Positions 215-43,979 are shown, counted from the stretch's first letter. The stretch is 64,000 bases of DNA from Akkermansia muciniphila (GCA_945874145.1 CAMCFN010000004.1:5407-69406); one strand, 5' to 3'. Notes: a model not told the origin generated them from the sequence alone. Made by a program: numbers and translations.

Positions 215-2746
215 ATGCGTCGCCACTCACTTGCTGCAATGCCTAGTGCCATCCATCGCCATTGGTTTCCTCGCGTCGGGCTGGGCTTGCTTGCGTTTGT
301 CCTGCCGTTCGTCGCAGAGCCTATTTTTGCCGCCGAAACTCGCATTCATCCGCTGCCGCCGCTGCATGAGCGCATTGATGCGCTCATCGAGTCCGAGTTT
401 GCCGGGCCGTTGACGCCGCCAGCTAGCGACGCGGATTTTCTACGGCGCGCATATCTCGATCTCACCGGCCGGATTCCGGCTTGGGACGAGGCCGACCGGT
501 TCCTGCTCGACGCCTCTGGCCAAAAGCGGTCGCGGCTCGTGGACGGACTGCTCGCGACGCCGCAGCATGCGCGGCACCTCGCGACGTTTTTCGATGTGAT
601 GTTCATGGAGCGGCTGGCTGAGAAGCATGTGAAGGTGGCCGACTGGCAGCAGTTCCTCTTCGCCGCCTGTCTCACCAACCAGCCTTACCACGGCCTCGTT
701 CGTGAAATCCTCGCCGCCGACAGCGCGAACGAAAGGACCCGCGTGGCCAGCCGCTTCCAACTTGATCGGGAGGCCGATCCGGCCGCGCTCACGCGCGACA
801 CTGGACGCGTCTTTTTCGGCATGGACCTCTCTTGTGCGCAATGCCACGACCACCCGAACGTCGCGGACTATCTCCAGCGCGACTATCACGGCCTCTTCGC
901 CTTCTTCAACCGCACCTATCTCTTCACGCGCGACAGCGACAAGAAGGCGTTCATTGCGGAAAAGGCCGAGGGCGACGTGACGTTCACCTCGGTTTTCACC
1001 AAGGAAACCGGGGCCACCCGCCCGCGTCTGCCGGGCGCTGCGCAACTCCCGGAGCCAGCGCCACCGCGCGGTGCCGAGTATCTGGTGCCACCCGACCCGA
1101 AGAACAAAAACCTTCGGCCCGTGCCGCAACACAGCCGCCGCGCCGAGCTGGCCAAGGCTGCCACGGAGACGAACCACCGCGCCTTCAATCGCAACATCGT
1201 GAACCGGTTGTGGGCCATGCTGATGGGCCGCCCCCTCGCCGGTCCGGTGGACGAACTGCATTCCGCGAACCCGCCCGCCTATCCCGCGCTGCTGGACTTG
1301 CTCGCCCGTGAATTCGCCGCGAGCGGTTACGACACCCGGGCCTTCCTGCGCGAGTTGGCCTTGACGCGGGTTTACGGCCGCAGCTTTGAGCTGCCGACGG
1401 CGATCGGTTCGCCGCGCGGGTTGGCGGCCACTTGGATTCCCGTGCTGGAAAACCGCCACCGGCAGGTGACCAACGAAGTGGCTTCCGCCGAGGTGTTCGT
1501 GAGGGAGGTGCGCGATCGCATCGCCGCGCAGCGGAAGGTTGCGCAACCAGTTGCAGACGAGCTGGCGAAGACCAATGCAGTCATCACCGAGGTGCGCAAA
1601 GCCTGCGACCCGGCGATCAATGCGCACCGCGATGCTGAGCGCGATTTGGTTCGGAAACGCGATGGCTTGAAGTCCGTGCAAGCCGCGCAGGCGGGGTTGG
1701 CTCAAGCGTTGGACAAATTGCCCGGCGACAAGGAGATCGTCGCCAGCGCGGACAAGCTCAAAGCGCGCGTCACCGAGTTGAACAAAGAGATCGAGGCGGC
1801 GGCGAAGGACGTGACGACGAAGGACACTGCCGCCAAGCCGTTGCGGGAAAAGCTCGCCGCCGCCGAGGCCACGGCGACTGCCATCCGCACCCGCTGGGCG
1901 GCCGAGGATCAAACGGCTGCGAAGCTCGACGCGGATCTCAGCACTGCGCTCACGCGCTGGCAGGACGCCAAGGCGGATGCCCGGCACCTTGAGCTGCGGC
2001 TGGAAACGGCCCAGACGCTGGTCGAGACCGACCGGCTGCGGGCCGAAGTTGAGCAGTTGCAGGGCAGCTTGGTGCGAGCCGTCCGTCCGGGTGTGACCTC
2101 CGCCCGGTCCGTCGCGCTGGAAGCGAAAGCGGATGTGCAGACGAAGGCCTTGAAGGAGGCCACGGACAAGCTCACGGGCGTGCTGGAAAAGTCCTTTGCC
2201 GTCGGCACCTTGACGCCGCTCACCCCGGAGCAACTGGCGTGGAGCATGATGCGCGCGGCGGGAGTGGTGGACGCCCACGAGGCCGCCGGCGCGGCCGAGT
2301 TCGACAAGAAAAACCCACCGACCACCGCGAACCAAAGCGATCCGGCGTTACCCGCCGAGCGCGCGAAGTTTGCGGAGCAATACACGTGGGACAAGCTCAA
2401 GGGCGGCGCGGCGGGCTTTGCGCCTTTCTTTGCCGCCGGTGCGGGGGAGCCGCAGGACGCCTTCTTCGCCACGGCGGATCAGGCGTTGTTCCTCAACAAC
2501 GGCAGCATGATGCGGAGCTGGCTCGCGCCGTCCGCCGACAACCTCACTGCACGGCTGGGCAAGCTCACCGACGCCGGTGCGCTGGCGAAGCAGCTCTATC
2601 TCAGCGTGCTTACGCGCTGGCCGACGGAGGCTGAAGTTGCGGCGGTGCAGAAGCAACTGGCGGCGCGGGAGAAGGATAAGCCCGCCGTGGTGCAGGAACT
2701 CGCTTGGGGTCTGCTGACCTCGGCGGAATTCCGGTTCAAGCACTGA
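215..2746 (+). CDS. DUF1549/DUF1553 (PSD1-type) secreted protein with a central coiled-coil insert
   Basis: 843-aa ORF with a hydrophobic signal-like N-terminus. DUF1549-type motifs RRAYLDLTGRIPAWDE and SCAQCHDHPN. An Ala/Glu/Lys/Arg-rich coiled-coil segment spans roughly aa 400-640. DUF1553-type C-terminus ends LLTSAEFRFKH. Confidence 0.85.
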   Translation: MRRHSLAAMPSAIHRHWFPRVGLGLLAFVLPFVAEPIFAAETRIHPLPPLHERIDALIESEFAGPLTPPASDADFLRRAYLDLTGRIPAWDEADRFLLDASGQKRSRLVDGLLATPQHARHLATFFDVMFMERLAEKHVKVADWQQFLFAACLTNQPYHGLVREILAADSANERTRVASRFQLDREADPAALTRDTGRVFFGMDLSCAQCHDHPNVADYLQRDYHGLFAFFNRTYLFTRDSDKKAFIAEKAEGDVTFTSVFTKETGATRPRLPGAAQLPEPAPPRGAEYLVPPDPKNKNLRPVPQHSRRAELAKAATETNHRAFNRNIVNRLWAMLMGRPLAGPVDELHSANPPAYPALLDLLAREFAASGYDTRAFLRELALTRVYGRSFELPTAIGSPRGLAATWIPVLENRHRQVTNEVASAEVFVREVRDRIAAQRKVAQPVADELAKTNAVITEVRKACDPAINAHRDAERDLVRKRDGLKSVQAAQAGLAQALDKLPGDKEIVASADKLKARVTELNKEIEAAAKDVTTKDTAAKPLREKLAAAEATATAIRTRWAAEDQTAAKLDADLSTALTRWQDAKADARHLELRLETAQTLVETDRLRAEVEQLQGSLVRAVRPGVTSARSVALEAKADVQTKALKEATDKLTGVLEKSFAVGTLTPLTPEQLAWSMMRAAGVVDAHEAAGAAEFDKKNPPTTANQSDPALPAERAKFAEQYTWDKLKGGAAGFAPFFAAGAGEPQDAFFATADQALFLNNGSMMRSWLAPSADNLTARLGKLTDAGALAKQLYLSVLTRWPTEAEVAAVQKQLAAREKDKPAVVQELAWGLLTSAEFRFKH

Positions 2747-2848
2747 CCACCGGTGCCGCTCCTTCCAGCGCGGAGAAAAATGGCCCTGCCAAGGCAAGAA
2801 AGCGAATTCATCCCCGCCCCCCGCAGTCTGATACCCCACAGCCCGCTT

Positions 2849-4138
2849 ATGAAGCCTTGCCAATACGCCTGTAATTCGGCCGACCACGTCATCGCCCGGC
2901 GCAATTTCCTCGGCAGTCTTGCGCTCGGTGCGGGCGTCGTGGGTGGTCTTGGCACCTTCGCACAGCCATCCGTGTCCGCCGCGCTGGCCAGGGATCAGAA
3001 GCGGATGCTCGTCATCAACATGCACGGCGGGCTTTCCCAGTTGGAGAGCTGGGATCCCAAACCGGGCACCGACACGGGCGGGCCGTTCCGCGCCATTCCC
3101 ACCAGCGTGCCCGGCCTGCACATCAGCGAACTTCTTCCGCACACGGCGAAGGTGATGCACCACCTCGCCGTCGTGCGGAGCATCAACACCAAGAACGACG
3201 ACCATGGCAAGGGCAGCTACATGATGGTCACGGGCCGTCGCAAGATGCCGGGCCAGAGCTACCCGGAAATTGGTGCGGTCGTCGCCAAGTGCCTGGATTC
3301 CCCTGCCCAGAGCCTGCCCGGCCACATCCGCATCACGGCGGGCGGCGGCGGCGGACGCAGCGCGGACTCCGCCTACCTCGGTCCGAAATACGCCAGCATC
3401 TCGCTCGATGGTGGCAAGCCCCCGCAGAACACCACCAAGCCCGAAACCCTGACCGACGTTTCACTCGCCGAGCAGAATGCCTTCCGCCGCCTGGCCAACG
3501 ACCACTTCCTCTCCCGCCGCCGCACGGCGATGACCGATGCCTACGTGCAAAGCTACGAGCAGGCGCTGGAGCTGATGAAGCAGCGCGAAGTCTTCGAGTT
3601 GAGCAAGGAGCCGGAGAAAGACCACGACCGCTACGGCAAACATGACTTCGGCCGGCACTGCCTCATGGCGCGGCGGCTGTTGGAGAAAGGCATCTCCTTC
3701 GTGCAGGTGTCGCACTCCAACTACGATACGCACAACGAGAACTTCAACTTTCACTTCGAGCAGGTGGGCGAGTTCGACAAGCCCTTCGCCACGCTCATCA
3801 CGGACCTGCACGAGCGCGGGATGCTGGAGAACACGCTGGTCGTGGTGCTCTCCGAGTTCGGGCGCACGCCGCGCATCAACCAGTATTACGGACGCGACCA
3901 CTGGGGCAAGGCGTGGAGCGTCTGTCTGGGCGGCGCGGGCCTCCAGCGGGGTGCAATCATCGGTGCGACCAACGCCAACGGCACCGAGGTGAAGGAACGC
4001 GAAGTGGACTGCGGCCATCTCTTCCACACCTACCTGCGCGCGCTGGGCCTCAGTTCCAAGTCGAGCTTTGACGTGGCCGGCCGTCAGGTGCTCATGGCTG
4101 ATCCGGCGTGCGGGCCGATCAAAGAATTGCTGGCGTAG
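2849..4138 (+). CDS. DUF1501 family protein (sulfatase-like fold) with twin-arginine leader
   Basis: Tat motif ARRNFLGSLALGAG. DUF1501-type blocks GGLSQLESWDPKPG, NDDHG, SEFGRTPRINQYYGRDHW. The frame opens at 2753, but ATG 2849 gives a normal Tat leader. Confidence 0.85.
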   Translation: MKPCQYACNSADHVIARRNFLGSLALGAGVVGGLGTFAQPSVSAALARDQKRMLVINMHGGLSQLESWDPKPGTDTGGPFRAIPTSVPGLHISELLPHTAKVMHHLAVVRSINTKNDDHGKGSYMMVTGRRKMPGQSYPEIGAVVAKCLDSPAQSLPGHIRITAGGGGGRSADSAYLGPKYASISLDGGKPPQNTTKPETLTDVSLAEQNAFRRLANDHFLSRRRTAMTDAYVQSYEQALELMKQREVFELSKEPEKDHDRYGKHDFGRHCLMARRLLEKGISFVQVSHSNYDTHNENFNFHFEQVGEFDKPFATLITDLHERGMLENTLVVVLSEFGRTPRINQYYGRDHWGKAWSVCLGGAGLQRGAIIGATNANGTEVKEREVDCGHLFHTYLRALGLSSKSSFDVAGRQVLMADPACGPIKELLA

Positions 4139-4206
4139 CTTCGCGCGGCGGCGCGGCCCACTCGTGAGTTGAAAACATTTGCCGGAAGCGGTTCATTTCC
4201 ATCGCC

Positions 4207-4449
4207 ATGAACTTCAAACAGCAAGACCTCCGCGACTTGGTTCTCCACGCTCCATTCCAAGCCTTCCGGTTGCATCTGTCCGATGGCAAACAACTCAAGG
4301 TTCCCCATCCTGACTTTGCCTTGCCGGGGGCCAGCTTGCTTGTCGTCGCCAATGAGCTGCCCAACGGTGCCCCGGGTGATGTGAACCTGATTTCCTACGA
4401 ACACATCGATCGGGTGGAGTTGCTGCCCAAGCGTTCGGTTAAAGTGTGA
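4207..4449 (+). CDS. hypothetical small protein (80 aa)
   Basis: ATG-initiated ORF 68 nt after the DUF1501 stop. Its stop overlaps the GTG of the next ORF (GTGA). No recognisable family. Confidence 0.45.
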   Translation: MNFKQQDLRDLVLHAPFQAFRLHLSDGKQLKVPHPDFALPGASLLVVANELPNGAPGDVNLISYEHIDRVELLPKRSVKV

Positions 4450-4874
4450 AGCCTGACTTCAAAACCGCCGCCGTTGCCACTGAAGCGCAGAGCCGCTTCA
4501 GTCAGGCGCGTCCTCTCACGGCGAAGATGACGGCGGTCACTGGGAGTCTGACCGCCTTGCTGCTCCTCTGGCATCCGTTGTCCGTGGTTCAATTTGTTAC
4601 AGGCATCTTGATCGGCGTTCTCTGCGCTGTGCTCGGTTTGAAGCAGATGACTAGCGACAGAGCCGTCTTCCCAACCTCTTTTCTTCCCCTGTTCGTCCTA
4701 CTCTTCGGAGCGACGATGATAGCGGACGCGAATGAGCCTGAATCTTCAGCCTTGTCGCTGGCCCATTCGCAATCGCTCATTTTGGCCGCTTGCGGGGCTG
4801 TGATGCTCATCTTCGAGAAACCCGTCCTTCGCCGCTTTGCAAAAGAAACGGCCGCTGAAACTCGCCGAACGTGA
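4446..4874 (+). CDS. hypothetical membrane protein (142 aa)
   Basis: GTG start in a GTGA overlap. About three hydrophobic helices (LTALLLLWHPLSVVQFVTGILIGVLCAVLGL, FLPLFVLLFGATMI, LILAACGAVMLIF). GC about 55%, below its neighbours. The first 13 codons mimic the start of the following WD40 gene. Confidence 0.45.
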   Translation: MKPDFKTAAVATEAQSRFSQARPLTAKMTAVTGSLTALLLLWHPLSVVQFVTGILIGVLCAVLGLKQMTSDRAVFPTSFLPLFVLLFGATMIADANEPESSALSLAHSQSLILAACGAVMLIFEKPVLRRFAKETAAETRRT

Positions 4875-5887
4875 AACCCGACTTCAAAGCCGCGCACGTC
4901 GCCGCCGAGTTCGACCACACGTCGCCGCTCATCACCTGCCGCTTTGACCCCACGGGCAGGTTCGTCTTCGCCACGGCCGAGGATCGCGCCATCCTGCGCT
5001 GGGATCTGGCCGACCCGAAGAAGAAGACCGTGTTCAGCGCGCATGATTCCTATGTCTGGGCGGTTGCGTTGTCGAAGGATGGCCAGATCCTTGTGAGCGC
5101 GGGCGGCGATGACACGCTCATCTGGTGGCCCGCCACGGCGGAGAAGCCTGAACCGCAGCGCAAGGTCGCGGCGCACAAGGGCTGGATTCGCGCCCTCGCC
5201 ATCAGCCCGGACGGCAAGCTCCTCGCCAGCGGTGGCAACGACCGGCTCGTTAAACTCTGGAATCTGGCCGACGGGAAAATGGTGCAGGAGTTCTCCGGCC
5301 ATGAGCTGGACGTTTACAGCGTCACGTTCCATCCCGACGGCAAATTTCTCCTCTCCGGCGACCTCATGGGCAAGGTGCACCAGTGGGATCTCGCCACGGG
5401 CAAGTCCGTGCGCGTGCTCGATGCAAAGGAGCTGCACCATTATGACAAGGGACAGCAAGTTCACTTCGGCGGCATGCGCGGCCTTGCCATTTCGCCGGAC
5501 CGGAAGAACCTCGCGTGCGGCGGGCTGCACAAGGCCACGAACCCCCTTGGCAACGTCCACGAGCCCATCGTCCAGCGCTACGACTGGGAAACCCACAAGT
5601 TGGTGAAGACGCACCTCGCCGAGGGTTTGACTAACTCGACCGTGTGGAACTGCCTCTTCCATCCCGACGGCACGCTCATCGCCGGTTGCGGCGGCGGCAG
5701 CGGCGGGCACCTGCTCTTCTGGGGCAAGGACGACGAGAAGCCCGCGCCCGCCTTCAAGCTCCCCGACATGGCCCGCGAAATGGATTTGCACCCCGACGGC
5801 CTCCAGATCGCCACGGTCCACTACGCCAAGAAACTGCGCCTGACCAAGCTCGCGCCCAAGCCCCCGGCACCCGCGAAGAAGGCGTGA
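4871..5887 (+). CDS. WD40 repeat (beta-propeller) protein, no signal peptide
   Basis: Repeated WD-like blocks (RWDL, LIWW, VKLWNL, VHQWDL). GTG start in a GTGA overlap with the upstream ORF. Paralogous to 40654..41655. Confidence 0.85.
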   Translation: MKPDFKAAHVAAEFDHTSPLITCRFDPTGRFVFATAEDRAILRWDLADPKKKTVFSAHDSYVWAVALSKDGQILVSAGGDDTLIWWPATAEKPEPQRKVAAHKGWIRALAISPDGKLLASGGNDRLVKLWNLADGKMVQEFSGHELDVYSVTFHPDGKFLLSGDLMGKVHQWDLATGKSVRVLDAKELHHYDKGQQVHFGGMRGLAISPDRKNLACGGLHKATNPLGNVHEPIVQRYDWETHKLVKTHLAEGLTNSTVWNCLFHPDGTLIAGCGGGSGGHLLFWGKDDEKPAPAFKLPDMAREMDLHPDGLQIATVHYAKKLRLTKLAPKPPAPAKKA

Positions 5888-6198: not shown

Positions 6199-7131
6199 AT
6201 GTTGCAGCCCCTTGCCGAAGACTTCCTCTTCTCCCTGCGCCACGAGCGCGGGCAGGCGGAGCACACGCAACGCACCTACAAGGCGTTGCTGGACAAATTT
6301 ATCAACTGGGCGGAGCCCCGGGGGATCGAGCACTGGGGCCAGGTGCAGTTGAACCAACTCACCGAGTTTCTCCAGCACGAGTGTGACCGTAAGCTGGCCG
6401 ACGCACCAAAGGAGTCACAGGCGAAGCTCAGCCCCTCCAGCCTCTACCTGCAAATCGCCGCCCTGCGGGCTTTTTACCGCTGGGCCGAAACCGAGAAAAA
6501 GCTGGCCGCAAACCCGGCCGAGAACCTGTCGCTGCCGCGCCGTTGGAAGTTGCTCCCCAAGTCGCTGCCCATCGCGGAAATTGTTCAAATTCTTAAGCCG
6601 TTGCCCGTCAACGAACCTTGGGACCTATGTGATCAGGCGATCCTTGAACTCGCCTACGCCAGCGGCCTGCGGCTCGCGGAGCTGCGCAACTTGCGGCTGG
6701 AGCAGTTGCACCTGGAAGCTGGCTTTGTCACCGTGATTGGCAAGGGCAACAAGGAACGCGTGGTCCCGGTCGGCAAATTTGCGGCGGCCGCGCTGAACCG
6801 TTACCTCGAGGTCGCGCGGCCCAAGCTCGTCAGTCCGAGATCGCCGGCGAATGTCTTTCTCACCCGGCGGGGCACGGCCTTCGCGCATGTGACCATGTGG
6901 GCGCACATCAAGCAGCGGGTGCGGCGCGCGGGCATCGAGCGTCTCGTGACGCCACACATGCTGCGGCACAGCTTCGCCACGCATCTGCTGGAGCACGGCG
7001 CGGACCTGCGTGTGATTCAGGAGCTGCTGGGCCATTCGAGCATCAGCACCACGGAGGTTTACACGCACGTCGCCGGTCAGCGGCTGAGGGAGGTGCATGC
7101 GGAACACCATCCACGGGCCAAATTCTCATGA
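6199..7131 (+). CDS. tyrosine site-specific recombinase, XerC/XerD family
   Basis: 310 aa. C-terminal catalytic block HMLRHSFATHLLEHGADLRVIQELLGHSSISTTEVYTHV. N-terminal SAM-like core-binding region. Confidence 0.9.
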   Translation: MLQPLAEDFLFSLRHERGQAEHTQRTYKALLDKFINWAEPRGIEHWGQVQLNQLTEFLQHECDRKLADAPKESQAKLSPSSLYLQIAALRAFYRWAETEKKLAANPAENLSLPRRWKLLPKSLPIAEIVQILKPLPVNEPWDLCDQAILELAYASGLRLAELRNLRLEQLHLEAGFVTVIGKGNKERVVPVGKFAAAALNRYLEVARPKLVSPRSPANVFLTRRGTAFAHVTMWAHIKQRVRRAGIERLVTPHMLRHSFATHLLEHGADLRVIQELLGHSSISTTEVYTHVAGQRLREVHAEHHPRAKFS

Positions 7132-23319: not shown

Positions 23320-25914
23320 ATGCGCCTTGCCCCGATTCTCATTCTGCTGGTCTTCGCCCAAGGGCTCCAAGCGGTGCCCGATTTCGAGCGCGAGGTGCGC
23401 CCGTTTCTCAAGCAGAACTGTTACTCCTGCCACGATGCGAAGAAGGCGAAGGCGGGCTTCCGCATTGATGAATTGGGCACGGATTTCCTCAGCGGCAAGA
23501 CGGCGGACGCCTGGCACGAGGTCATCAACCAAATCAACAGCGGCGAGATGCCGCCGAAGAAAGAGCCGAGGCCGGATGCGAAGGCGGCGTTTGCCGTGGT
23601 GGAATGGGTGGGCGCGAATCTGAAGAACGCGGAGCGGCAGGCGCGCATGGCGGGCGGGCGCATCCTGATGCGGCGGCTGAACCGGCAGGAGTATGCGAAC
23701 ACCGTCGGCGATTTGTTCCGGCTCGACCCGAATTTTGTCGAGAAGCTGAAACGCGAACTGCCCGCCGATGGCAAAGCGGAGGGCTTCGACCGCATCGGCA
23801 GCGCGCTGTTTTTCGACCAGACGCAGATGCTCGGCTATCTCGACTGGGCCGGGCAGATTGCCCGCGAGGCGGTGCAGAGCGCGCCGCCGAAGGCGGAGAC
23901 CTATGTCTATGAGGCGGAGAAGCACCTCAACAGAAACGAAGGCCCGACCGTAGAAGTGGGGCAGGCCATCGACCATCAGATTCCCCTCGGCCCCACGTTC
24001 TACGACAAGAAAGCCACGGGCGTCGAGATTTGGGCGGGCCACGGCGGCAAGCCTGATGAAGATAATAAGACGTGGGCGATGGTGCCGTATGGACCGCGCC
24101 CGGACCTGACGAAGCTGGTCACGCAGGACGGCTACTATCGAGTGCGCGTTCATGCCGGGGCCTCGACTGGCGCGCGGGGGACTCCGGTGGTGATGCGCCT
24201 CACCTACGCCGTCGGCACGCCGCTGGAGAGCATCCATGACATCACCATCGAGGGAACTTTGGAGAAACCAGGTGTGGCGGAGACGCTGGTGTTCCTGCGG
24301 GCCGGGCAGCCCGACCAGCAGAAGCCCTTGGTGCCGTCTTGGAATGGCATCAACAACCTGCGCGTCAACAATCCCGAATGGGGTGCCGTCCACCTGCGTT
24401 GGCTCATATCGCAGGGCAAACTCTCAAAAGCTGCGGCTGCACGTGACGATGCCGAAGTCGCACGACTCAAGGTCGAGCGCGAGCAGGTGCTCAAGGACTT
24501 GAATGCCTTCACCGGGCCGCGCTGGATTCCGCATCCGACGCACAACCCGGCCACCGCGCCGCGCCTCTTCCTCGATAAAATCACGGTGGAAGGTCCGCTG
24601 CCAAAGGAGTGGCCACCGGCGAGCCATGCCCTGCTCGGACTCGATGACAAAACCCCGCAGGACGAAAACGGCCTGCGCTCGGTGTTCGCATCGCTGCTGC
24701 CGAGAGCGTATCGTCGGCCCGTCGAAAAAGCGGAAGTGGATAAGCTCGTGCGCATCGCCGCCGGTGCGATGCAGCGCGAGAAGATACCCTTTCCCGATGC
24801 GCTCCGACTTGGCCTGCAAACGATGCTTTGCTCGCCGGGCTTTGTTTTCATCCAGGAGCCGCAACCGCGCGCTGCTGCTGCCGCGAAGGGCACGCGTCAG
24901 CTGAACGACTTCGAACTCGCGAGCCGCCTTTCCTATTTCCTCTGGAGCAGCCAGCCGGACGACGCGCTGCTCGCGCTCGCGGACAAAGGCACCCTGAAGC
25001 AGCCCGCGACGCTCCGCGCCCAGGTCACGCGCCTGTTAGCGGATGCGAAGAGCCGGCGTTTCGTTGAGAATTTCGCCGGTCAGTGGCTCGATGTGGAGCA
25101 GTTCGGCAGCGTGGAGCCAGCGAAGGAATACAAGAGCTATGACAACGCGCTCAAGACCGCGAGCCGCGAGGAGCCGCTGGCGTTTTTCCAGCAGGTGCTC
25201 ACGGAAAATCTGCCGGTCGCGAGCTTCCTCGACTCCGACTTCCTCGTCATCAATGAACGCCTCGCGCGGCACTACGGCATCGAGGGCGTGAGCGGCGAGA
25301 CGTTTCAAAAAGCCGCGCTCAAGCCGGAGCATCATCGCGGCGGCGTCCTCGGCATGGCCGGGCTGCTGACCTTGCTGGCTGATGGCACCCGCACACTGCC
25401 AGTGCGGCGTGGGGCGTGGGTTTTGGAGAAGCTGCTCAACGACCCGTCACCGCCTCCGCCGCCGAACGCGGGCGACATCCAGCCGAATACCGCTGGCGCG
25501 AAACTCACCGTCCGCGAGCGCCTGCAAAAGCACCGCGACGAGCCGAGCTGCGCGAGTTGCCATGCCAAGCTCGACCCCTACGGCCTCGCATTGGAGAACT
25601 ACGACGCCATCGGCGCGTGGCGCGAGCGCCAAAATGGCGAGGGCATCGGCGGAAAAAATGCGCCGGTCATTGATGCCAGCGGCGCGCTCAAATCCGGACG
25701 CGCGTTCCAAGACCTCACCGGCTACAAGGCCGGATTGATGGCCGAGCAGGACAAGTTCATCCGCGCCTTCACGGAAAAGCTGCTCACCTACGCGCTCGGC
25801 CGCCCCGTGGGCTACGTGGACCACGCCACGATCGAAACCATCCTGAAATCCGAGCCGCGCCTGCAATCGCTCGTGCAAGCGGTCGTCGCCTCCGAACCTT
25901 TTCAAACCAAGTAA
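23320..25914 (+). CDS. DUF1587/DUF1592/DUF1595/DUF1588/DUF1585 multi-domain protein with N-terminal CxxCH (planctomycete cytochrome c-like) motif
   Basis: FEREVRPFLKQNCYSCHD, MRRLNRQEYANTVGDLF, LASRLSYFLWSSQPDD, FVENFAGQWLDV, SCASCHAKLDPYGLALENYDAIGAWR. Confidence 0.85.
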   Translation: MRLAPILILLVFAQGLQAVPDFEREVRPFLKQNCYSCHDAKKAKAGFRIDELGTDFLSGKTADAWHEVINQINSGEMPPKKEPRPDAKAAFAVVEWVGANLKNAERQARMAGGRILMRRLNRQEYANTVGDLFRLDPNFVEKLKRELPADGKAEGFDRIGSALFFDQTQMLGYLDWAGQIAREAVQSAPPKAETYVYEAEKHLNRNEGPTVEVGQAIDHQIPLGPTFYDKKATGVEIWAGHGGKPDEDNKTWAMVPYGPRPDLTKLVTQDGYYRVRVHAGASTGARGTPVVMRLTYAVGTPLESIHDITIEGTLEKPGVAETLVFLRAGQPDQQKPLVPSWNGINNLRVNNPEWGAVHLRWLISQGKLSKAAAARDDAEVARLKVEREQVLKDLNAFTGPRWIPHPTHNPATAPRLFLDKITVEGPLPKEWPPASHALLGLDDKTPQDENGLRSVFASLLPRAYRRPVEKAEVDKLVRIAAGAMQREKIPFPDALRLGLQTMLCSPGFVFIQEPQPRAAAAAKGTRQLNDFELASRLSYFLWSSQPDDALLALADKGTLKQPATLRAQVTRLLADAKSRRFVENFAGQWLDVEQFGSVEPAKEYKSYDNALKTASREEPLAFFQQVLTENLPVASFLDSDFLVINERLARHYGIEGVSGETFQKAALKPEHHRGGVLGMAGLLTLLADGTRTLPVRRGAWVLEKLLNDPSPPPPPNAGDIQPNTAGAKLTVRERLQKHRDEPSCASCHAKLDPYGLALENYDAIGAWRERQNGEGIGGKNAPVIDASGALKSGRAFQDLTGYKAGLMAEQDKFIRAFTEKLLTYALGRPVGYVDHATIETILKSEPRLQSLVQAVVASEPFQTK

Positions 25915-25919
25915 CCACC

Positions 25920-27284
25920 ATGAACATCCTCAAACACCGCTCCATCGACCGCCGCACATTCCTGCGCGGCACCGGCGTCTCGCTCGCGCTGCCCTGGCTT
26001 GAATCCATGTCCTCGCTGGCACGCGCGGCATCTACGGCGGGCGGCATCGCGGAGAGCGAGCGTCCGAAACGCGCCCTCTTCACCATGTGGGGCCTCGGCA
26101 TGAACGGCCGCGATTTCACGCCCGCGAACACGGGCCGCGATTGGGGCGTCACGCCCATCCTGAAGCCCGTGGCGCACCTGCGCGATGACTTCACCCTCAT
26201 CAGCGGCCTCAAACTCACGCACTCCGGCGGCCACGGCGGTGACCGCACCTTCTTGACCGGCACCGCCACGCACAAAGCCGACGCGAAGCTCCGCATCTCC
26301 GCCGACCAGGAAATCGCCGAGGCCATCGGCAAAGCCACGCGTTACCCCAGCCTCGTGCTCGGCATCAATCGCGGCACCGGCTTCGGCAGCGGCACCATTG
26401 ACAAGACGCTTGCCTGGACCCGCGGCGGCACGCCCATCCCGGCGGAAAACCGTCCGCACATCCTCTTCGACAAACTCTTCCGCGCCGAAAGCCCTGACGA
26501 AGTCGCCGCCCGCAGGGTCGGTGCCGGCCGCACCGGCAGCGTGCTCGACGCCGTGCGCGACGAGGCAAAGACCCTGCAAAACCGCCTCGGCAAAGACGAC
26601 CTCGCCAAGCTCGACGAATACTTCACCTCCATCCGCGACGTGGAGCAGAGCATCGCCACCGACCTCGCCTGGCTCGACAAGCCGAAGCCAAAAGTCGCCG
26701 CGATTGACTTCGGCAAGAACGTCCAGGCGCTCGACCCCGAGCTGCAAGCCAAGGGCAACTTCGACTACCGCCGCTACCAGCGCCTCATGTTCGATGTCAT
26801 CACCCTCGCGCTCCAGACCGACAGCACCCGCGTCATCAACTACTACGCCCGCCGCGACCTCAACGACGGCACCCATTGCTACGCCTACAAAGGCTGCCCC
26901 TACGGCTACCACGAAATGACCCACCACGGCGAAGACCCCGACAAGCTCAAGTGGCTCACCACCGTGGACACTTGGTATATGGAGGACTGGGCTTACTTCA
27001 TCGAAAAGCTCAAGAGCGCCAAGGAAGGCGACGGCACCCTGCTCGACCACACCATGCTCGTCTGGGGCAGCAGCGGCGGCACTGTCAACGCCCACAACAA
27101 CACCGAACTGCCCACCATGCTCGTCGGCGGTCAAAAAATCGGCATCAAGCACCAGGGCCACCTTGAGAAAAAGGACGTCCGTCTCGGCAACCTCTGGCAG
27201 ACGATGTTCGGCGTTATGGGCGTGAAAGTGCCCGACAAATTTCAAGGCGGCGAAGCGGATGGCATCGTGAAGGAAATCGTGTGA
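25920..27284 (+). CDS. DUF1552 family protein (usual partner of DUF1592 proteins)
   Basis: MNILKHRSIDRRTFLRGTGVSLALPWLESM Tat-like leader. Lies 5 nt downstream of the DUF1592-type gene. Confidence 0.85.
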   Translation: MNILKHRSIDRRTFLRGTGVSLALPWLESMSSLARAASTAGGIAESERPKRALFTMWGLGMNGRDFTPANTGRDWGVTPILKPVAHLRDDFTLISGLKLTHSGGHGGDRTFLTGTATHKADAKLRISADQEIAEAIGKATRYPSLVLGINRGTGFGSGTIDKTLAWTRGGTPIPAENRPHILFDKLFRAESPDEVAARRVGAGRTGSVLDAVRDEAKTLQNRLGKDDLAKLDEYFTSIRDVEQSIATDLAWLDKPKPKVAAIDFGKNVQALDPELQAKGNFDYRRYQRLMFDVITLALQTDSTRVINYYARRDLNDGTHCYAYKGCPYGYHEMTHHGEDPDKLKWLTTVDTWYMEDWAYFIEKLKSAKEGDGTLLDHTMLVWGSSGGTVNAHNNTELPTMLVGGQKIGIKHQGHLEKKDVRLGNLWQTMFGVMGVKVPDKFQGGEADGIVKEIV

Positions 27285-27489: not shown

Positions 27490-28650
27490 ATGAAACCACT
27501 GCCTCTCCTCATCGCCACCCTCCTGTTCGCCGCCACACTGTCGGTCCAGGCCGCCTCGCCGCTCACGTCCGCCATCGAAGCCGCGCTCACCAGGGAGATC
27601 GCCGCCCACCACGCCGCCGGCGTCGTCACGCTCGTGATGCAGGACGGCAAGGTGATTCATCACGCTGCCACCGGACTCGCTGACCGCGACCAAAAGCTCC
27701 CGATGAAGGCCGATTCACTTTTCTGGATCGCCTCCATGACCAAGTCCGTGGCCGTCACCACGATCATGACGCTCGTGGACGAGGGCAAGCTCTCGCTCGA
27801 CGTTCCCGCGTCGCAGTGGCTGCCCGAGCTGGGCAAGGTCAAGCTCGCCAGCGGGCAGCCGCCCGCCCGCGCCATCACACTGCGTGACCTGCTGTCGCAC
27901 ACGGCGGGCATCGCGTTTCCGCCGCGCAAGTCCACCGATGGAGCGCACTCCCTCAAGGGCTACGTGGCGGAGTTGCTGCGCGCGCCCCTCGCCTTCGAGC
28001 CGGGTTCGGCCTACGAATACGGCTTTGGGATCACCGTCGCGGGCCGCATCGCGGAGCTGGTTTCCGGCAAGCCCTTTGAAGTGCTGATGCACGAGCGCGT
28101 CCTCGACCCGCTGGGCATGAAGGAGACCACGTTCCATCCCGACGCCCGCCAGCGCCCGCGCATCGCCCGCACTTACAAATCCGCCGAGGGCGGCGGCCTC
28201 GCACTGGCCAACAACGTCTTCGTCACGTCCGACCCCGCCGTGCGGCGCATGGCCGAGCCCTCGGGCGGGCTGTTCTCCACGGCGGCGGACATGGCCAAGT
28301 TCTACCAGATGATTCTCAACGGCGGCGTGCATGAGGGGAAACGCATCGTGTCGGAAAAGGCCGTCGCCGAGATGACGCGCCCGCACAAGGCCGGCGGCAA
28401 GACTCTGAACTACGGTCTCGGCTGGCAGACCGGCAACGGCGAGAGGCCGGCCGTTCCTGGTTTTTCCAAAACCGCCTTCGGCCACGGCGGCGCGTTCGCC
28501 ACGCACGGGTTCATTGATCCCGAGCGCAAACTGGTCACGGTGTTCATGGTGCAGAACGTCTTGGTGACCGGCAGCGGCGATGCGCGCAAGGCCTTCCATG
28601 ATGAAGTCAACCGCGCGCTGAAAAGCGGCGAAACAAGCTCGGCCCAGTGA
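27490..28650 (+). CDS. serine hydrolase, beta-lactamase (class C/PBP4-like) family
   Basis: Signal peptide MKPLPLLIATLLFAATLSVQA. S-x-x-K motif ASMTKSV, YEYGFG, HGGAF (KTG-equivalent region). The track ORF opens at 27430. Confidence 0.85.
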   Translation: MKPLPLLIATLLFAATLSVQAASPLTSAIEAALTREIAAHHAAGVVTLVMQDGKVIHHAATGLADRDQKLPMKADSLFWIASMTKSVAVTTIMTLVDEGKLSLDVPASQWLPELGKVKLASGQPPARAITLRDLLSHTAGIAFPPRKSTDGAHSLKGYVAELLRAPLAFEPGSAYEYGFGITVAGRIAELVSGKPFEVLMHERVLDPLGMKETTFHPDARQRPRIARTYKSAEGGGLALANNVFVTSDPAVRRMAEPSGGLFSTAADMAKFYQMILNGGVHEGKRIVSEKAVAEMTRPHKAGGKTLNYGLGWQTGNGERPAVPGFSKTAFGHGGAFATHGFIDPERKLVTVFMVQNVLVTGSGDARKAFHDEVNRALKSGETSSAQ

Positions 28651-31469
28651 ACTCACTCAAAGCCAGCCCAACCTTCCGCCAAGGTCCAGCGGCCATCTGG
28701 CCGCGCCTGTTCGCTGTGCTCTGCTTGGTTGGAGCAACGGGGCTTCACGCTGCGGAAAACACTTGGTGGTCGTATCAGCCCGTGGTCCGCCCCGCCTTGC
28801 CACCGGTGAAAAGTTCCACCTGGGTCCGCAACGACCTCGACCGCTTCATTCTCGCCAAATTGGAGGCGAAGGGGCTCCAACCCTCACCCGAGGCCGACCC
28901 GCGCACTTTGATTCGCCGCCTCTATTTCGACCTCCTCGGCCTGCCCCCTACGCCTGAGGAAGTTGAAGCGTTCGTGCGCGAGTGTTCCCCAATCGGCAAT
29001 CGGCAATCGGCAATCGCCAATCTCATTGACCGTCTCCTCGCCAGCCCGCACTACGGCGAACGCTGGGCGCGTCACTGGCTCGACATCGCCCACTACGCCG
29101 ACACCCACGGCTTCGAGCGCGACCAGCTTCGCCCCAACGCCTGGCGCTACCGCGACTACGTCATCGCCTCGCTCAACGCCGACAAGCCTTACGACCAATT
29201 CCTTCGCGAGCAAATCGCTGGCGACGTCCTCCCCCCAGCCCCCAAGCGTCAGACCCCAGACGCCATCGCCCTCGGCTTCCTCGCCGCCGGCCCGTGGGAT
29301 TTCGTCGGTCAGGTCGAGACCAAGAGCGACGTGCTCAAGCGCGCCGCCCGCGCGGACGACCTCGACGACATGGTCACGCAAGTCCTCACCGCCTCGATGG
29401 GCGTGACCATCAATTGCGCCCGCTGCCACGACCATAAGCTCGACCCCATTTCGCAGCGCGAATACTACGGCCTCTGGGCGGTCTTCGCCGGCGTGAAGCG
29501 CGGCGACCGCGAGCTGGACCCCGCCGCCACCGCGCGTCGCGAGACCGAGCGCAAGCAGCTCCAGACGCGTCTCCGCGAAGTCTCCGCCGAGTTGGGCCGC
29601 CTCACCGGCGAGGGCCTCGACCTCGCGGACATGGTCGGCGGCGGCAATGGTCGCGGCACGGGCACCAAGGGCGCGGGCCTCGACCTCCGCACCGGCAACG
29701 TGGTGAAGGACAAGCTCGGCTACCACCGCGACATCCAGCTCAACCTCCTGCAAAAGCCCGAGTGGCCGGACGCGAACACGCCGAAGTTCGTCCAGTGGGT
29801 TTTTGTGCCGGACGGCAAGTCGCCCGTGCCCGTCGCGCCGCAAGTCACCGTCAGCCACCTGCCGCCCACGTCTGGCCACGCGTGGGACGCGATTCGTAAT
29901 GGCGCGCTGAACGCCCTAGTCTCCACCAAACTCGACGGCGTGGACTTCGCGGTGGCTGGCCACTCGCTCCTTGGCCTGCATGCCAACGCCGGCATCACCT
30001 TCAACCTCGCTGAGATTCGCAAGGCCAGCGGCTTCGCGAAACTCCGCTTCACCGCACAGGTCGGCTTCGGCGCAGGACCGACTGCCGCTGCGACTCGCGC
30101 GGACTTCTCCGTTTTCGCCGGCAAGGAGCTGCTCTTCCAGAAGCTCAAACTCCGCAAAGACGAGTCCGCCCGCGTGGACGTGGCACTCCCGGACGCCGCC
30201 GAGACGCTCACGCTCGTCGCGACCGACGGCGGGGACGGCATCGGCAACGACCTGCTCTTCCTCGGCGACGCGAAGCTCTCGCTGACCGTGGAGGCGCAGA
30301 GCCTCGCCGCCGCTGACCGCGCGCGTCTGGAGACGTTGCGCGCGGAGGAGAAGCAGTTGAACACCGCCCTGGCCGCGAAGGCCGACGGCGACAAAGTCTA
30401 TGCCATCACCAGCACCGAGCCGCCCGTGGTAAAAGTCCTCCGCCGTGGCAACCCCGAGGACGCGCAGGAGGAAGTCGCGCCCGGTGTCCTCAGTTGCGTG
30501 AAGCACGCCGCCGCCGATTTCGCGCGCGCCAAGACCGAGGGCGAGCGCCGCCTCGCATTGGCCGAGTGGATTACGCATCCCGCAAACCCGCTCACCCGCC
30601 GCGTGCTCGTGAACCGCCTGTGGCACCACCACTTCGGCGTCGGTCTCGTGGACACGCCCAGCGACTTCGGCAAAGGCGGCGGCGCACCGTCGCACCCGGA
30701 GTTACTCGATTGGCTGGCGGAGGAATTCCTCGCGCGCGGCTGGTCGCTGAAGGCGATGCACCGGGTGATTTGCACGTCAGCGGCGTATCGGCAGAGTTCA
30801 GCGTTCAGTAATCAGTATTCAGTAAGCAGTGGGGGAAGCGCCAGTGTGCCGCGGAGCACCGGTCCCCCACTGAACACTGAACACTGGAAACTGAACACTG
30901 CCGCCGCCCAACACCTCGACGCCTCGAACCGCCTCCTCTGGCGTCAAAACCCCCGCCGCCTCGACGCCGAGTCCACGCGTGACGCCGTGCTTGCCGTCAG
31001 CGGCAAGCTGAACCTCACCGCCGGCGGCCCCGGCTACCGCGACTTCAAATACACCGAGGCCTACGCGCCCATCTACGACTACGTCACCGCCGACACGCCG
31101 GAGCTGTGGCGGCGCAGCATCTACCGCTTCGTCGTGCGCACCACGCCGCACACGTTCATGACCACGCTCGACTGTCCGAACCCCGCGAACCTCACGCCCG
31201 CCCGCACCGCCACCACCACCGCGCTGCAAGCCCTCGCGCTCTCGAACAACGAGTTCATCCTCCAGCAAGCCCGCCATTTCGCCGCCCGCGTGGAGCGCGA
31301 GGCGGGCGCGGACGCCGCCGCCCAAATAAACCGTGCCTTCCACCTCGCGTTCCCCCGTCCGCCCGGCTTGGCGGAACTGGCCGCCGCGCGTGACCTTGTC
31401 CGCACCGACGGCGTCTTTTCCCTGTGCCGCATGCTGCTCAACGCCAACGAATTTGTGTATGTGGATTGA
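28647..31469 (+). CDS. DUF1549/DUF1553 (PSD1-type) protein with NPCBM-like central module
   Basis: GTG start in a GTGA overlap with the upstream gene. [65 protein letters not shown]. The central segment ...[22 protein letters not shown] resembles NPCBM-type carbohydrate-binding modules. Confidence 0.85.
28991..29022 (+). repeat. in-frame heptanucleotide tandem array (AATCGGC)x3 + AATCGCC + AATC inside the CDS
   Basis: Read directly: aatcggc aatcggc aatcggc aatcgcc aatc. Encodes [10 protein letters not shown] just before the [11 protein letters not shown] block. Confidence 0.7.
30797..30900 (+). repeat. in-frame palindromic element: five TTCAGTN heptamers, 36-nt core, five NACTGAA heptamers
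   Basis: Left array at 30797-30831 and right array at 30868-30900. Perfect 10-bp stem CAGTGGGGGA/TCCCCCACTG plus 19/27 further pairs. AT-rich relative to the gene. Amounts to 87 extra nt compared with the paralog at 56804-56825. Confidence 0.75.
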
Positions 31470-35474: not shown

Positions 35475-36998
35475 ATGAAAAAACTCCTGCTCACTCTGTT
35501 GGTCGCTGGCTCCTTTGCCACCGCATTCGCTGCCGCGCCTGCCCAGCCCAACATCGTCATCATGCTCGTGGATGACATGGGCGTGATGGACACCTCGGTG
35601 CCGTTTCTTACGGACGAGGCGGGCAAGCCGAAGCGGTATCCGCTCAACGATTACTACCGCACGCCAAGTATGGAGCGGCTCGCAGCCCGTGGCATTCGCT
35701 TCAACAACTTCTACGCCATGAGCGTGTGCTCGCCCACGCGCATCTCCATCATGACCGGCCAGAACGCGGCGCGGCATCGCACGACGAACTGGATCAACCC
35801 CGACAACAACAACGCCGGCCCAAGCGGCCCGTCGCAGTGGAACTGGCGTGGCCTGAAGCAGGGCGACGTGACGTTGCCCCGCCTCCTGCAGGCGAACGGC
35901 TACCGCACCATCCACGTCGGCAAGGGTCACTTTGGCCCGCGCGACTCCGACGGCGCAGACCCGCGCAACTTGGGCTTCGACATCAATGCCGGCGGAGCGT
36001 CTATCGGCGCGCCAGCAAGCTACTACGGCACGCAGGATTTCGGTCTCAAGACGAAGAATGCAAAAGCCGGCGTGCGCGGCCTGGAGAAGTATCACGGTCA
36101 GGAAATCTTCCTCACCGAGGCGCTCACACTCGAAGCCAACACGCACGTCGCCGACGCGGTGAAGGCCGACAAACCATTCTTCCTCTACTTCGCGCAATAC
36201 GCCGTCCACGCACCGTTCAACTCCGACTCACGCTTCGCCGCGCACTACGCAAACTCCGGGAAACCCGCGAACGCGCAGGCCTTCGCCACGCTCATCGAGG
36301 GCATGGACAAGTCGCTTGGCGATGTGCTGAACCAGCTCGAAAAGTTAGGCGTCGCGGAGAACACGCTGTTTGTCTTCCTCGGTGACAACGGCTCCGACGC
36401 GCCGCTTGGGCACCAGCACGAGGTTGCCTGTGCCGCGCCGTTGCGCGGGAAGAAAGGCTCGCACTACGAAGGCGGCGTGCGCGTGCCGTTCATCGCCGCG
36501 TGGGCCAAGCCGGATGCGAACAACGCCTTCCAGAAACGCCTGCCCATCGCCGCCGGATCCATCCAGAGCCAGCAGGCCGCCGTCTATGACATGTTCCCCA
36601 CCCTCCTCGCGCTCACCGGCAAGCCCGCTCCGGCGAACCACGTCGTTGACGGTGCGCGCCTCGACACGCTGCTCACCGGCAAGCGCGATGCGAGCCGCGA
36701 AGAATCGTTCCTCATGCACTACCCCCACTCGCCGCACCGCACCGACTACTTCACCACCTACCGCAACGGCGATTGGAAAGTCATCTACCACTACTTCCCG
36801 GGCGAGGTGTCCGAGAGCTCCCACTACCAGCTCTTCAACCTAAAGGCCGACCCGTTCGAGCAGAAGAACCTCGCCACGACTGAACCGACCCAGCTCAAGC
36901 GATTGATGCAGGGCCTCGCCGCTGGCTTGGAGAAACAAGCCGCCGTGTATCCGGTGGACAAGGGGACGAAGCTCGCGCTGAAGCCGAAGTTGCCATGA
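35475..36998 (+). CDS. Cys-type sulfatase
   Basis: Signal peptide MKKLLLTLLVAGSFATAFA. NIVIMLVDDMG. Signature VCSPTRISIMTGQN. An alternative ATG lies at 35460. Confidence 0.9.
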   Translation: MKKLLLTLLVAGSFATAFAAAPAQPNIVIMLVDDMGVMDTSVPFLTDEAGKPKRYPLNDYYRTPSMERLAARGIRFNNFYAMSVCSPTRISIMTGQNAARHRTTNWINPDNNNAGPSGPSQWNWRGLKQGDVTLPRLLQANGYRTIHVGKGHFGPRDSDGADPRNLGFDINAGGASIGAPASYYGTQDFGLKTKNAKAGVRGLEKYHGQEIFLTEALTLEANTHVADAVKADKPFFLYFAQYAVHAPFNSDSRFAAHYANSGKPANAQAFATLIEGMDKSLGDVLNQLEKLGVAENTLFVFLGDNGSDAPLGHQHEVACAAPLRGKKGSHYEGGVRVPFIAAWAKPDANNAFQKRLPIAAGSIQSQQAAVYDMFPTLLALTGKPAPANHVVDGARLDTLLTGKRDASREESFLMHYPHSPHRTDYFTTYRNGDWKVIYHYFPGEVSESSHYQLFNLKADPFEQKNLATTEPTQLKRLMQGLAAGLEKQAAVYPVDKGTKLALKPKLP

Positions 36999-43047: not shown

Positions 43048-43839
43048 CTAAGGAAGCTCAACGCGTTTGACTCCCGCAGGTGGAGTTTCAGTTACGTCCT
43101 CAACAACCACCTTCCCGTAACCAAGGCCATTCTTCCGGTCAGCTTCAACGCGGCAAAAGAGCGTCAGGCCCTTTTCAGCCTTCGTGCTCATGCAGTTGTA
43201 TTGAGCGTTGGCCGGCGTTTCCTTCAAGTCATCGAAGGCAACCCCATCGGGGACTTTGGCAAAACCAAAGCCCTTGCTGGAGCGATGGAAGTCTAGAAAC
43301 GGTGTGTCGCCGAACATGTCGCCCCCTGATGCCTTCTGCCAAATCTGCCAGTCATGCTGGAAGTAGGGCAAACTCCCCCAGTGGGCGACCGCTGCTCGCC
43401 CCTCCTTGATGCTTTTGCCGGAAAGCTCTCGACCGCCCGAAGTGTTGAAAACGTAGCGCAACACCACGTATCGCTTGCGGTAAAGGTTTACTTTCATCTC
43501 ACTCGGCTCTCCCTTCCCTTGCTTCACTGTCAGACTCTGCCACTGAGCCGCATAGCCCGGAGAAGAGAAGAAAACCAAGTAGTCTCCGTCAGCCAAATCA
43601 GACAATCCCAGCGCGTTTGAACCTGGCTGCGCATCATCCAGCTTTTTCAGAACTTTAGGCGTCAGCTCCCCGGTCTGAATTTCCACCTTAATCTTCGCTG
43701 ACCGCATGTCCTCCATGGACAGATTAAGACGTAAGGAGGATTTAGTCGCCTCTGCTCCATCCTTTTGAGCCTGCTGGCCGTGAGCCCCCTCGTGAGAAAC
43801 GGCTACCATCAGTAGGATTGTCAGCGTAAGCGTTCGCAT
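43048..43839 (-). CDS. hypothetical secreted protein (263 aa), low-GC
   Basis: Signal peptide MRTLTLTILLMVAVSHEGAHG. GC about 52% in sampled 60-nt windows versus about 70% in the flanking DUF1501 gene. A possible CarboxypepD_reg-like segment (GDYLVFFSSPGYAAQWQSLTV). No confident family. Confidence 0.6.
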   Translation of the reverse strand: MRTLTLTILLMVAVSHEGAHGQQAQKDGAEATKSSLRLNLSMEDMRSAKIKVEIQTGELTPKVLKKLDDAQPGSNALGLSDLADGDYLVFFSSPGYAAQWQSLTVKQGKGEPSEMKVNLYRKRYVVLRYVFNTSGGRELSGKSIKEGRAAVAHWGSLPYFQHDWQIWQKASGGDMFGDTPFLDFHRSSKGFGFAKVPDGVAFDDLKETPANAQYNCMSTKAEKGLTLFCRVEADRKNGLGYGKVVVEDVTETPPAGVKRVELP

Positions 43840-43857
43840 GGCTCTCAGTGTGGGAAG

Positions 43858-43929
43858 CTAGTGATTAAACCGAAACTCCGTGCTGGTCAGGAGCGGCAAC
43901 GCGACCTGGCGCACGGTGTCGGTCGGACG
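43858..43929 (-). pseudogene. orphan 3' fragment (23 codons + stop) of a DUF1553-type gene
   Basis: Encodes RPTDTVRQVALPLLTSTEFRFNH*, versus RPTEAVRQVVWSLLTSTEFRFNH* at the end of the intact gene (44702...). The first 38 nt are 37/38 identical to 44702-44739. Confidence 0.6.
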
Positions 43930-43979
43930 AACCAGTGCGGAGTGCGGATACACCCAGTTCTTCCCGGCTTGGCCAACCG

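Follow-up and report, generated by a model that had tools for sequence, protein, structure and literature searches.

A stretch of DNA of 64,000 nucleotides (nt) deposited under the name Akkermansia muciniphila (GCA_945874145.1, CAMCFN010000004.1:5407-69406), with a G+C content of ~65%, was analyzed as a whole and is referred to here as the window, with positions counted from its first letter. The window holds two copies of a gene triad that encodes, in order, a large protein with the domains PSCyt2 (DUF1549) and PSD1 (DUF1553), a DUF1501 protein, and a WD40 protein, which we call A, B, and W and number by triad. The first-pass annotation had recognized this order twice, once on the plus and once on the minus strand, and Pfam confirms each gene that it named, with the following scores and open reading frames (ORFs):

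215-2746, plus strand: A1, PSCyt2 (DUF1549) at 118 bits and the N-terminal part of PSD1 (DUF1553) at 89 bits
2849-4138, plus strand: B1, DUF1501 at 331 bits; the ORF opens at 2753
4871-5887, plus strand: W1, WD40 at 138 bits
44702-46696, minus strand: A2, PSCyt1, PSCyt2 at 123 bits, and PSD1 at 100 bits; the ORF runs to 47182
41701-43002, minus strand: B2, DUF1501 at 319 bits
40654-41655, minus strand: W2, WD40 at 95 bits; the ORF runs to 41697

A1 and A2 begin with predicted Sec-type signal peptides and contain PSCyt2 followed by PSD1, both above the Pfam gathering cut-offs (29.8 bits for PSCyt2, PF07583; 28.5 bits for PSD1, PF07587), with the PSD1 match being partial and covering profile positions 1-87 (A1) or 2-126 (A2) of 244. 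The PSCyt2 domain of all A proteins in the window contains a heme-type CxxCH motif, which reads CAQCH in A1 (at residue 207) and A2 and CA[RQ]CH in the three classical copies, A3-5, and A2 has a PSCyt1 domain with a CYKCH motif besides. A1 also carries a coiled-coil insert of ~225 amino acids (residues ~411-635) with weak matches to SMC/Rad50-like coiled coils. A sequence search of the PDB with A1 returned nothing useful, and NCBIfam yielded no names for the triad-related proteins that were searched. B1 and B2 cover positions 2-389 of the 390 in the DUF1501 profile, above its cut-off of 27 bits (PF07394), while in W1 and W2 Pfam finds the WD40 domain only, without PSCyt1.

As the first-pass annotation had claimed, the members of the two triads are each other's nearest paralogs in the window. 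By pairwise BLASTP, A1 and A2 are 34% identical, against 27-30% to A3-5, which are mutually ~50% identical; B1 and B2 are 40% identical, against 26-30% to the three classical DUF1501 proteins, B3-5, which share 47-52% with one another; and W1 and W2 are 32% identical. The motifs cited for this kinship were all found in a literal check and are limited to triad members. The C-terminal module of A1 ends in LLTSAEFRFKH and A2 ends in LLTSTEFRFNH, giving an LLTS(A/T)EFRF(K/N)H terminus that occurs in these two proteins only, GG[LA]SQLE[ST]WDPKPG..TGGPF.AIPTSVPG.HISEL is confined to B1 and B2, and LIWW, AH..WIR, and FHP.G are present in both W1 and W2. The triad proteins also score lower in Pfam than the classical window copies, at ~120 versus ~270 bits for PSCyt2, ~95 versus ~287 bits for PSD1, and ~325 versus ~440 bits for DUF1501 (433-453 in B3-5). 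W1 and W2 each top a large orthologous family of proteins of ~330 amino acids, whose members are 55-92% identical and come from both Verrucomicrobiota and Planctomycetota. With each copy belonging to its own orthologous family (55-90% identical) across the two phyla, the triads are not a recent segmental duplication, in agreement with what had been judged by eye. They are ancient paralogous versions of one operon, with one of each type in the window: type 1 has a long A protein with a coiled coil, and type 2 a shorter A protein, with or without PSCyt1.

Other genomes bear out the association of the three genes. A forward scan searched one genome per species with a WD40 alignment, and the best 80 of 355 relatives were analyzed by tblastn with the A, B, and W proteins of the window and by a neighbor-joining tree. 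In the clade of W1, a B1-type DUF1501 gene lies directly upstream on the same strand in 47 of 53 assessable non-redundant loci (within 200 nt in 42 and at 0.3-2.4 kb in 5, with none in the other 6). This upstream gene best matches B1 in all 47 linked loci, never B2-B5, and an A1-type gene lies further upstream in 41 of 44 assessable loci. The three loci of the W2 clade all pair with B2- and A2-type genes. The reverse scan searched metagenome contigs with a DUF1501 alignment and covered 80 loci with 42-99% identity to B1. Downstream of the B1-type gene lies a WD40 gene in 61/66 assessable loci, and upstream of it an A1-type gene in 64/69. The linkage is more than chance and stands at ~90% in both directions across other genomes. 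The two conditions that the first-pass annotation had named as refuting it, a lack of enrichment and a lack of subfamily clades, thus do not hold: this WD40 subfamily is strongly enriched beside this DUF1501 subfamily in other genomes, and the typing of A, B, and W agrees, marking the triad as a genuine unit of dedicated subfamilies. The A-B-W arrangement is a conserved operon of three genes in Verrucomicrobiota and Planctomycetota, and the window carries it twice.

The operon is typically compact. Distant W1 orthologs (loci L001, L002, and L003) lie on one strand in the order PSCyt2/PSD1, DUF1501, WD40, with tight B-W junctions that consist of a 4-nt overlap in L002 and gaps of 4-6 nt in L001 and L003. 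W2 orthologs from Singulisphaera acidiphila (L008), Pirellulales (L010), and locus L012 likewise follow A2-type and B2-type genes, in that order. The end of the upstream gene and the start of W are usually no more than a few bases apart, and the W2 ORF of the window can be extended by at most 14 amino acids, as far as 41697, 4 nt past the stop codon of B2. Linkage is also kept where the order is permuted to W-A-B (L176), and Prosthecobacter-like genomes contain two complete A-B-WD40 triads in tandem (L050, 1-9005, and L052; Prosthecobacter and Verrucomicrobiaceae metagenome-assembled genomes, MAGs), the first of which has a divergent WD40 protein.

In the window itself both triads are non-contiguous, with one lineage-specific insertion each:

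4139-4870, plus strand: ~730 nt inserted between B1 and W1, carrying a pair of small ORFs
4207-4449, plus strand: first inserted ORF, 80 amino acids
4446-4874, plus strand: second inserted ORF, 142 amino acids, with hydrophobic stretches
43048-44701, minus strand: insertion between A2 and B2, ~1.7 kb, with a junk ORF and a secreted-protein ORF
43048-43839, minus strand: signal-peptide protein of 263 amino acids, between the junk ORF and B2

The insertion between B1 and W1 includes a 38-nt duplication of the 5′ end of W1 (4446-4483 versus 4871-4908), which begins the second inserted ORF (MKPDFK...), and the stop codon of this 142-amino-acid ORF overlaps the GTG start of W1. The spacer between B and W is only ~95-105 nt in the close relatives L015, L016, L018, and L096. 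The insertion between A2 and B2 contains the junk ORF (43858-44673, minus strand), which has a wrong-frame-like composition. The last 72 nt of this ORF (43858-43929) directly repeat the 3′ end of A2 (44702-44773) at 85% identity, and the two copies flank an insert of ~840 nt that reads as the junk ORF. The 263-amino-acid signal-peptide protein had no match in Pfam or NCBIfam. The A2-B2 insertion is absent from the orthologous type 2 loci L008, L010, and L012, where A and B are directly adjacent. Apart from these two insertions, both specific to the lineage, the operon is compact, and the flanks of the WD40 genes appear to be a hot spot for insertions in the lineage.

Some further features of these junctions may be recorded. 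A scan for promoters and terminators yielded no useful signal. The short B-W spacer of the relatives holds a near-perfect inverted repeat, AATGGACACGAAT ... ATTCGTGTCCATT (L015, 6680-6780; L016, ~5000-5090; L018, ~7010-7110), which could be a hairpin or a repeat element, and locus L098 shares the region of the 80-amino-acid ORF at 82% nucleotide identity. A tyrosine recombinase gene (Phage_integrase, 152 bits) is found just downstream of W1 at 6199-7131 of the window, and ParE-type toxin-antitoxin cassettes and a tyrosine recombinase adjoin W1 and W2 orthologs in close relatives (L005-L007 and L094). In L094 the toxin-antitoxin cassettes precede the W2 ortholog, which overlaps a downstream S1 sulfatase gene by 4 nt (2171-3781).

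Beyond the triads, the first-pass annotation had counted five large and five small partners in the window along with one DUF1592/DUF1552 pair. These counts are correct by Pfam, but several of the genes do not form adjacent pairs:

28647-31469: A3, PSCyt2/PSD1 protein, carrying an NPCBM module
50458-53214: A4, PSCyt2/PSD1 protein
54672-57395: A5, PSCyt2/PSD1 protein, carrying an F5/8 type C module
36995-38485: B3, DUF1501 protein
47485-49122: B4, DUF1501 protein
53221-54651: B5, DUF1501 protein
23320-25914 and 25920-27284: DUF1592-type/DUF1552 pair

A3 is followed by a sulfatase gene, and B3 and B4 are without an adjacent A gene. Pairs of the DUF1592 family (PSD2-5/PSCyt3) with DUF1552 (HXXSHH), such as the one at 23320-27284, are a parallel two-gene module specific to the Planctomycetes-Verrucomicrobia-Chlamydiae (PVC) bacteria, but they are built from other protein families and no WD40 partner is seen for them in the window. 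The region between the triads from 17000 to 39000 encodes three S1 sulfatases, GDSL esterases, a BNR/sialidase-like protein, a DUF4838 protein, and a beta-lactamase-fold protein, and looks like a polysaccharide-degradation region. As judged from sequence identity, the window is verrucomicrobial, because the closest relatives of W1 (93-96% identical) sit in MAGs of Limisphaerales, Pedosphaera, and other or uncultured Verrucomicrobia. Several of the matching public MAGs bear implausible labels, among them 'Klebsiella', 'Akkermansia muciniphila', and 'Kuenenia'.

The AlphaFold2 (AF2) model of W1 has a predicted local distance difference test (pLDDT) score of 94, a predicted template-modeling (pTM) score of 0.92, and ~30 strands, the first of which starts at residue 8. 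Foldseek places PkwA-WD40 and WDR5 as the closest folds at a template-modeling (TM) score of 0.77-0.80, with seven-bladed propellers at 0.75-0.80, and by this model W1 is a canonical stand-alone seven-bladed WD40 propeller. All 240 of the 240 listed W homologs, which are 277-364 amino acids long, start at the propeller, without an N-terminal extension to hold a signal. That the WD40 members have no signal peptide, as first noted, therefore holds for the listed homologs as well.

The B protein is highly conserved. B1 orthologs are 67-72% identical between Verrucomicrobiota and Planctomycetota and, because identity between the phyla is ~70%, B is probably indispensable. In a DUF1501 alignment that includes B1-B5, S63, D69, K71, P72, H119, D293, H295, E336-R339, and R349-H351 are invariant, and the invariant blocks GG.S, D.KP, DH, EFGR, and GRDH are retained in B1 and B2. 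The AF2 model of B1 (pLDDT 77) is matched by Foldseek to LtaS, S1 sulfatases, alkaline phosphatase, and YejM at E values of 2e-5 to 8e-4 and TM scores of only 0.31-0.41, and the modeled fold is that of a distant member of the alkaline-phosphatase superfamily. No solved relative was detectable for B1 in a sequence search of the PDB. A robust natural fusion of DUF1501 to WD40 was not found among the 150 best cluster representatives; the only candidate, P0285, was rejected as a frameshifted assembly artefact. Five cluster representatives (P0348, P0364, P0369, P0373, and P0390) combine on one chain an extracytoplasmic function (ECF) sigma-70 domain, an anti-sigma-like linker, one transmembrane helix, and DUF1501, and P0373 has two extra C-terminal copies of a module of ~55 amino acids whose sequence is similar to the C-terminus of A1 (E 4e-4) and to the beginning of PSCyt2. 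These ECF sigma-transmembrane-DUF1501 fusions, including P0373, suggest that DUF1501 can serve as an extracytoplasmic sensor, and that the ~55-amino-acid module of the A protein may be what contacts DUF1501.

Unlike W, B is predicted to be exported by the twin-arginine translocation (Tat) pathway. An RRxF[LF] motif, a hydrophobic region, and an AxA-type site compose the predicted twin-arginine leaders of B1 and B2, and such a leader is present in 50 of 56 distinct WD40-linked B ORFs, extending the earlier call on the two window proteins to their orthologs. Just before the twin arginines, the n-region of the leader contains a Cys/His motif, which in translation reads:

2870-2902, plus strand: B1 leader motif, C-N-S-A-D-H-V-I-A-R-R, in the n-region of the Tat leader
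42955-42987, minus strand: B2 leader motif, CGSSDHDVSRR

The general form of the motif is C-x3-[DEQ]-H-x3-R-R, with M-K-x-C-x-Y-A-C-x-S-x-E-H-x-I-A-R-R-x-F-L-G being typical. It is present in 117/120 B1-family orthologs and in 47/52 WD40-linked B ORFs. Among representatives of 50%-identity clusters ranked by similarity to B1, the motif occurs in 8 of the top 15 and then in 1/31, 1/32, and 0/34, and of the more remote DUF1501 representatives only ~2% have it. The conserved leader residues are encoded by freely varying synonymous codons, so the constraint on the motif acts at the peptide level, and for the same reason a function as an RNA element was rejected. An AxA-type cleavage site is conserved in the alignment after the hydrophobic region, which predicts that the Cys/His motif should be removed after export. 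We also considered an uncleaved leader that would anchor B and keep the Cys/His motif in the cytoplasm for W, which the conserved AxA-type site makes unlikely. In about one quarter of the distant DUF1501 representatives a Cys precedes the RR pair by no more than 12 residues, and some leader feature with a Cys may go back to the ancestor of the entire DUF1501 family.

Genetic modules of DUF1501 with PSCyt1, PSCyt2, and PSD1 in PVC bacteria were reportedly described by Studholme in 2004. Their likeness to the triad lies in a large PSCyt2/PSD1 protein with an adjacent DUF1501 protein that bears a twin-arginine leader, and in the many paralogous copies per genome. The triad differs in that its A and B subfamily is divergent, with A reaching ~40% and B ~70% of the Pfam scores of the classical window copies, that B is unusually conserved and has the Cys/His leader motif, and that a signal-less WD40 protein is added. 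Kamneva et al. (2012; PMC3542564) described modules that combine DUF1501 with PSCyt/PSD1 and proposed that they act in electron transport and in targeting to the membrane, and DUF1501 is among the frequent neighbors of planctomycete WD40 genes (Hu et al., 2017; PMC5587647). The first-pass statement that the triad is assignable to no described system was therefore overstated. The nearest published arrangement is the 'most complex' four-gene cluster of Kamneva et al., which encodes a DUF1501 protein, a PPC-like secreted protein, a PSCyt1/Big_2/PSCyt2/PSD1 protein, and a PSCyt1/WD40 protein (PMC3542564). This cluster shares with the triad a WD40 protein encoded together with DUF1501 and PSCyt/PSD1 proteins, but the triad WD40 protein is without PSCyt1 or a signal, Pfam finds no Big_2 in A1 or A2, and the conserved triad unit has no PPC-like gene, the secreted ORF between A2 and B2 being a local insertion. 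Assignment of the second triad to the four-gene cluster was rejected, given that W2 lacks PSCyt1 and the secreted ORF is missing in L008, L010, and L012.

On function, He et al. state that nothing is known for the DUF1501/PSCyt/PSD1 genes (He et al., 2017; PMC5615132), and our full-text literature searches found no functional study of them. Nor did we find, in the DUF1501 and WD40 literature, the three-gene form with a stand-alone, signal-less WD40 protein and its ~90% two-way linkage, or the two ancient paralogous types, the extreme conservation of B, and the leader motif.

Our best guess, which we hold tentatively, is that W acts in the cytoplasm on the B precursor as an escort or assembly factor. 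B would fold in the cytoplasm and would probably take up its metal there. W, often translationally coupled to B, would bind the B precursor in the cytoplasm, possibly through the conserved C-x3-[DE]-H-x3-RR segment of the leader, and would serve as its dedicated escort or as an assembly/quality-control factor. B would then be exported by Tat, with its leader cut at the conserved AxA site, and in the periplasm it would work with A. This reading is favored because the leader motif, constrained at the protein level, resembles those of chaperone-recognized Tat leaders such as TorA (with TorD) and DmsA (with DmsD), for which conserved n-regions are typical. It is also favored because WD40 propellers are peptide-binding scaffolds that typically bind short peptides, and because W is without a cofactor that would demand export in the folded state. 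The two-way linkage, its survival in a permuted gene order, the tight spacing, and the pairing of a Tat leader on B with none on W count in its favor as well. The Tat chaperones of the TorD/DmsD family and NapD likewise carry no signal and share an operon with a Tat substrate in whose leader one stretch is conserved, but the WD40 propeller is an unrelated fold and B is not a known redox enzyme, making the analogy a functional one only. More speculatively, W may turn out to be a cytoplasmic receptor for the Cys/His Tat leader, representing an escort class other than TorD/NapD, or the first WD40 protein to be exported piggy-back via Tat, an outcome we regard as possible rather than probable.

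Several observations weigh against W as an escort for B. The leader is disordered in the AF2 model of B1. The motif is not required for linkage: in L176 the B protein has no Cys/His motif, yet W is in the operon, and in the first tandem triad of Prosthecobacter a WD40 gene is present though the leader of its DUF1501 protein is without the motif. Conversely, the unlinked classical paralog B3 has a related C-NLR-Q-H-SAS-RR at its N-terminus. To our knowledge, no WD40 protein is a Tat chaperone. In several close relatives W lies away from B, with the W1 ortholog following a peptidase S8 gene, and in a third WD40 clade, which is 44-50% identical to W1 and includes Schlesneria, Pirellulales, and Fuerstiella among others, a DUF1501 gene lies upstream in 0/20 loci.

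The neighbors of this third clade have no common theme and include a rhomboid protease, a DUF7133/HEAT/cytochrome c protein, PQQ_2, and GFO_IDH. In the Pirellulales genome GCA_046349915.1, an A1-type/B1-type pair without a WD40 gene downstream is found ~470 kb from a W1-like WD40 gene of the unlinked clade, and the A1/B1 pair and the unlinked 'W3'-clade WD40 gene co-occur on contig JAXMBL010000004.1, from which loci L083 and L095 both come. Because pair and WD40 gene sit on one contig ~470 kb apart, the unlinked clade looks like the same partner in an unlinked position. Large DUF7133/HEAT_2 proteins, most with a cytochrome c domain, also recur a few genes from WD40 members in unrelated genomes, which may simply reflect their abundance in PVC genomes:

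L005, 3948-8498: DUF7133/HEAT_2 protein near a WD40 member
L008, 12527-15661: DUF7133/HEAT_2 protein near a WD40 member
L079, 9063-12242: DUF7133/HEAT_2 protein near a WD40 member

The first-pass annotation had raised Tat hitch-hiking instead, in which W folds in the cytoplasm, docks on folded B, and crosses the membrane on the leader of B to join a periplasmic complex of A, B, and W. A Tat leader on B and none on W fits this topology as well as it fits an escort, and the coupling of the B and W genes is tight and often translational. Precedents are established in HybC with HybO, DmsB with DmsA, and PlcR2 with the alkaline-phosphatase-clan enzyme PlcH, in which one partner has a twin-arginine leader and the product of the adjacent gene has none; W differs from these partners in being without a cofactor. 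The WD40 protein of the published four-gene DUF1501 cluster, moreover, should be periplasmic, because it bears a PSCyt1 cytochrome c domain (PMC3542564). However, hitch-hiking has no need of a conserved n-region motif, no cofactor forces W to fold in the cytoplasm when many periplasmic propellers use Sec, and W is unlinked from B in the whole third clade, and we consider export of W on the leader of B rather unlikely.

We judge less probable still that W is a cytoplasmic signaling or regulatory adaptor that would, for example, relay the state of the envelope to a Ser/Thr kinase or an ECF sigma factor, thereby controlling the expression of A/B. Sigma-70 family genes often neighbor planctomycete WD40 genes (PMC5587647), an ECF sigma factor has been proposed to regulate a PSD1/PSCyt2 gene in R. 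baltica (PMC2754498), and the ECF sigma-transmembrane-DUF1501 fusions show that DUF1501 can be the outer half of a signaling protein. Nevertheless, no conserved sigma, anti-sigma, or kinase gene lies beside the triads in the neighborhoods of L001-L003, L008, L010, and L012, W has no DNA-binding or enzymatic domain, and its tight coupling to B suits a stoichiometric partner better than a regulator. That the linkage is functionally meaningless, with the WD40 gene a passenger beside an old DUF1501 pair, is highly improbable: the region is prone to insertion and rearrangement in the window's own lineage and W is unlinked in one clade, but several findings speak against it, in that two phyla show ~90% linkage whichever way the scan is run, two independent triads of paralogs agree in the types of their A, B, and W members, start and stop codons overlap, and linkage survives the permuted order of L176.

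DUF1501 and PSCyt/PSD1 are among the most expanded gene families of Planctomycetes and Verrucomicrobia, with dozens of copies per genome. Within them, the triad subfamily is the best experimental entry, having typically one or two copies per genome, a conserved B protein, and a defined set of partners. It also poses a sharp topological question, in that a cytoplasmic-looking propeller is encoded with an enzyme-like protein predicted to be exported by Tat and a heme-motif protein predicted to be exported by Sec. An answer could bring to light an escort or hitch-hiker of a new kind for Tat, and could also provide a first functional handle on the whole family. If W is indeed an escort, or is carried piggy-back, the protein that it serves would be among the most highly conserved in the DUF1501/PSCyt/PSD1 families of PVC bacteria.

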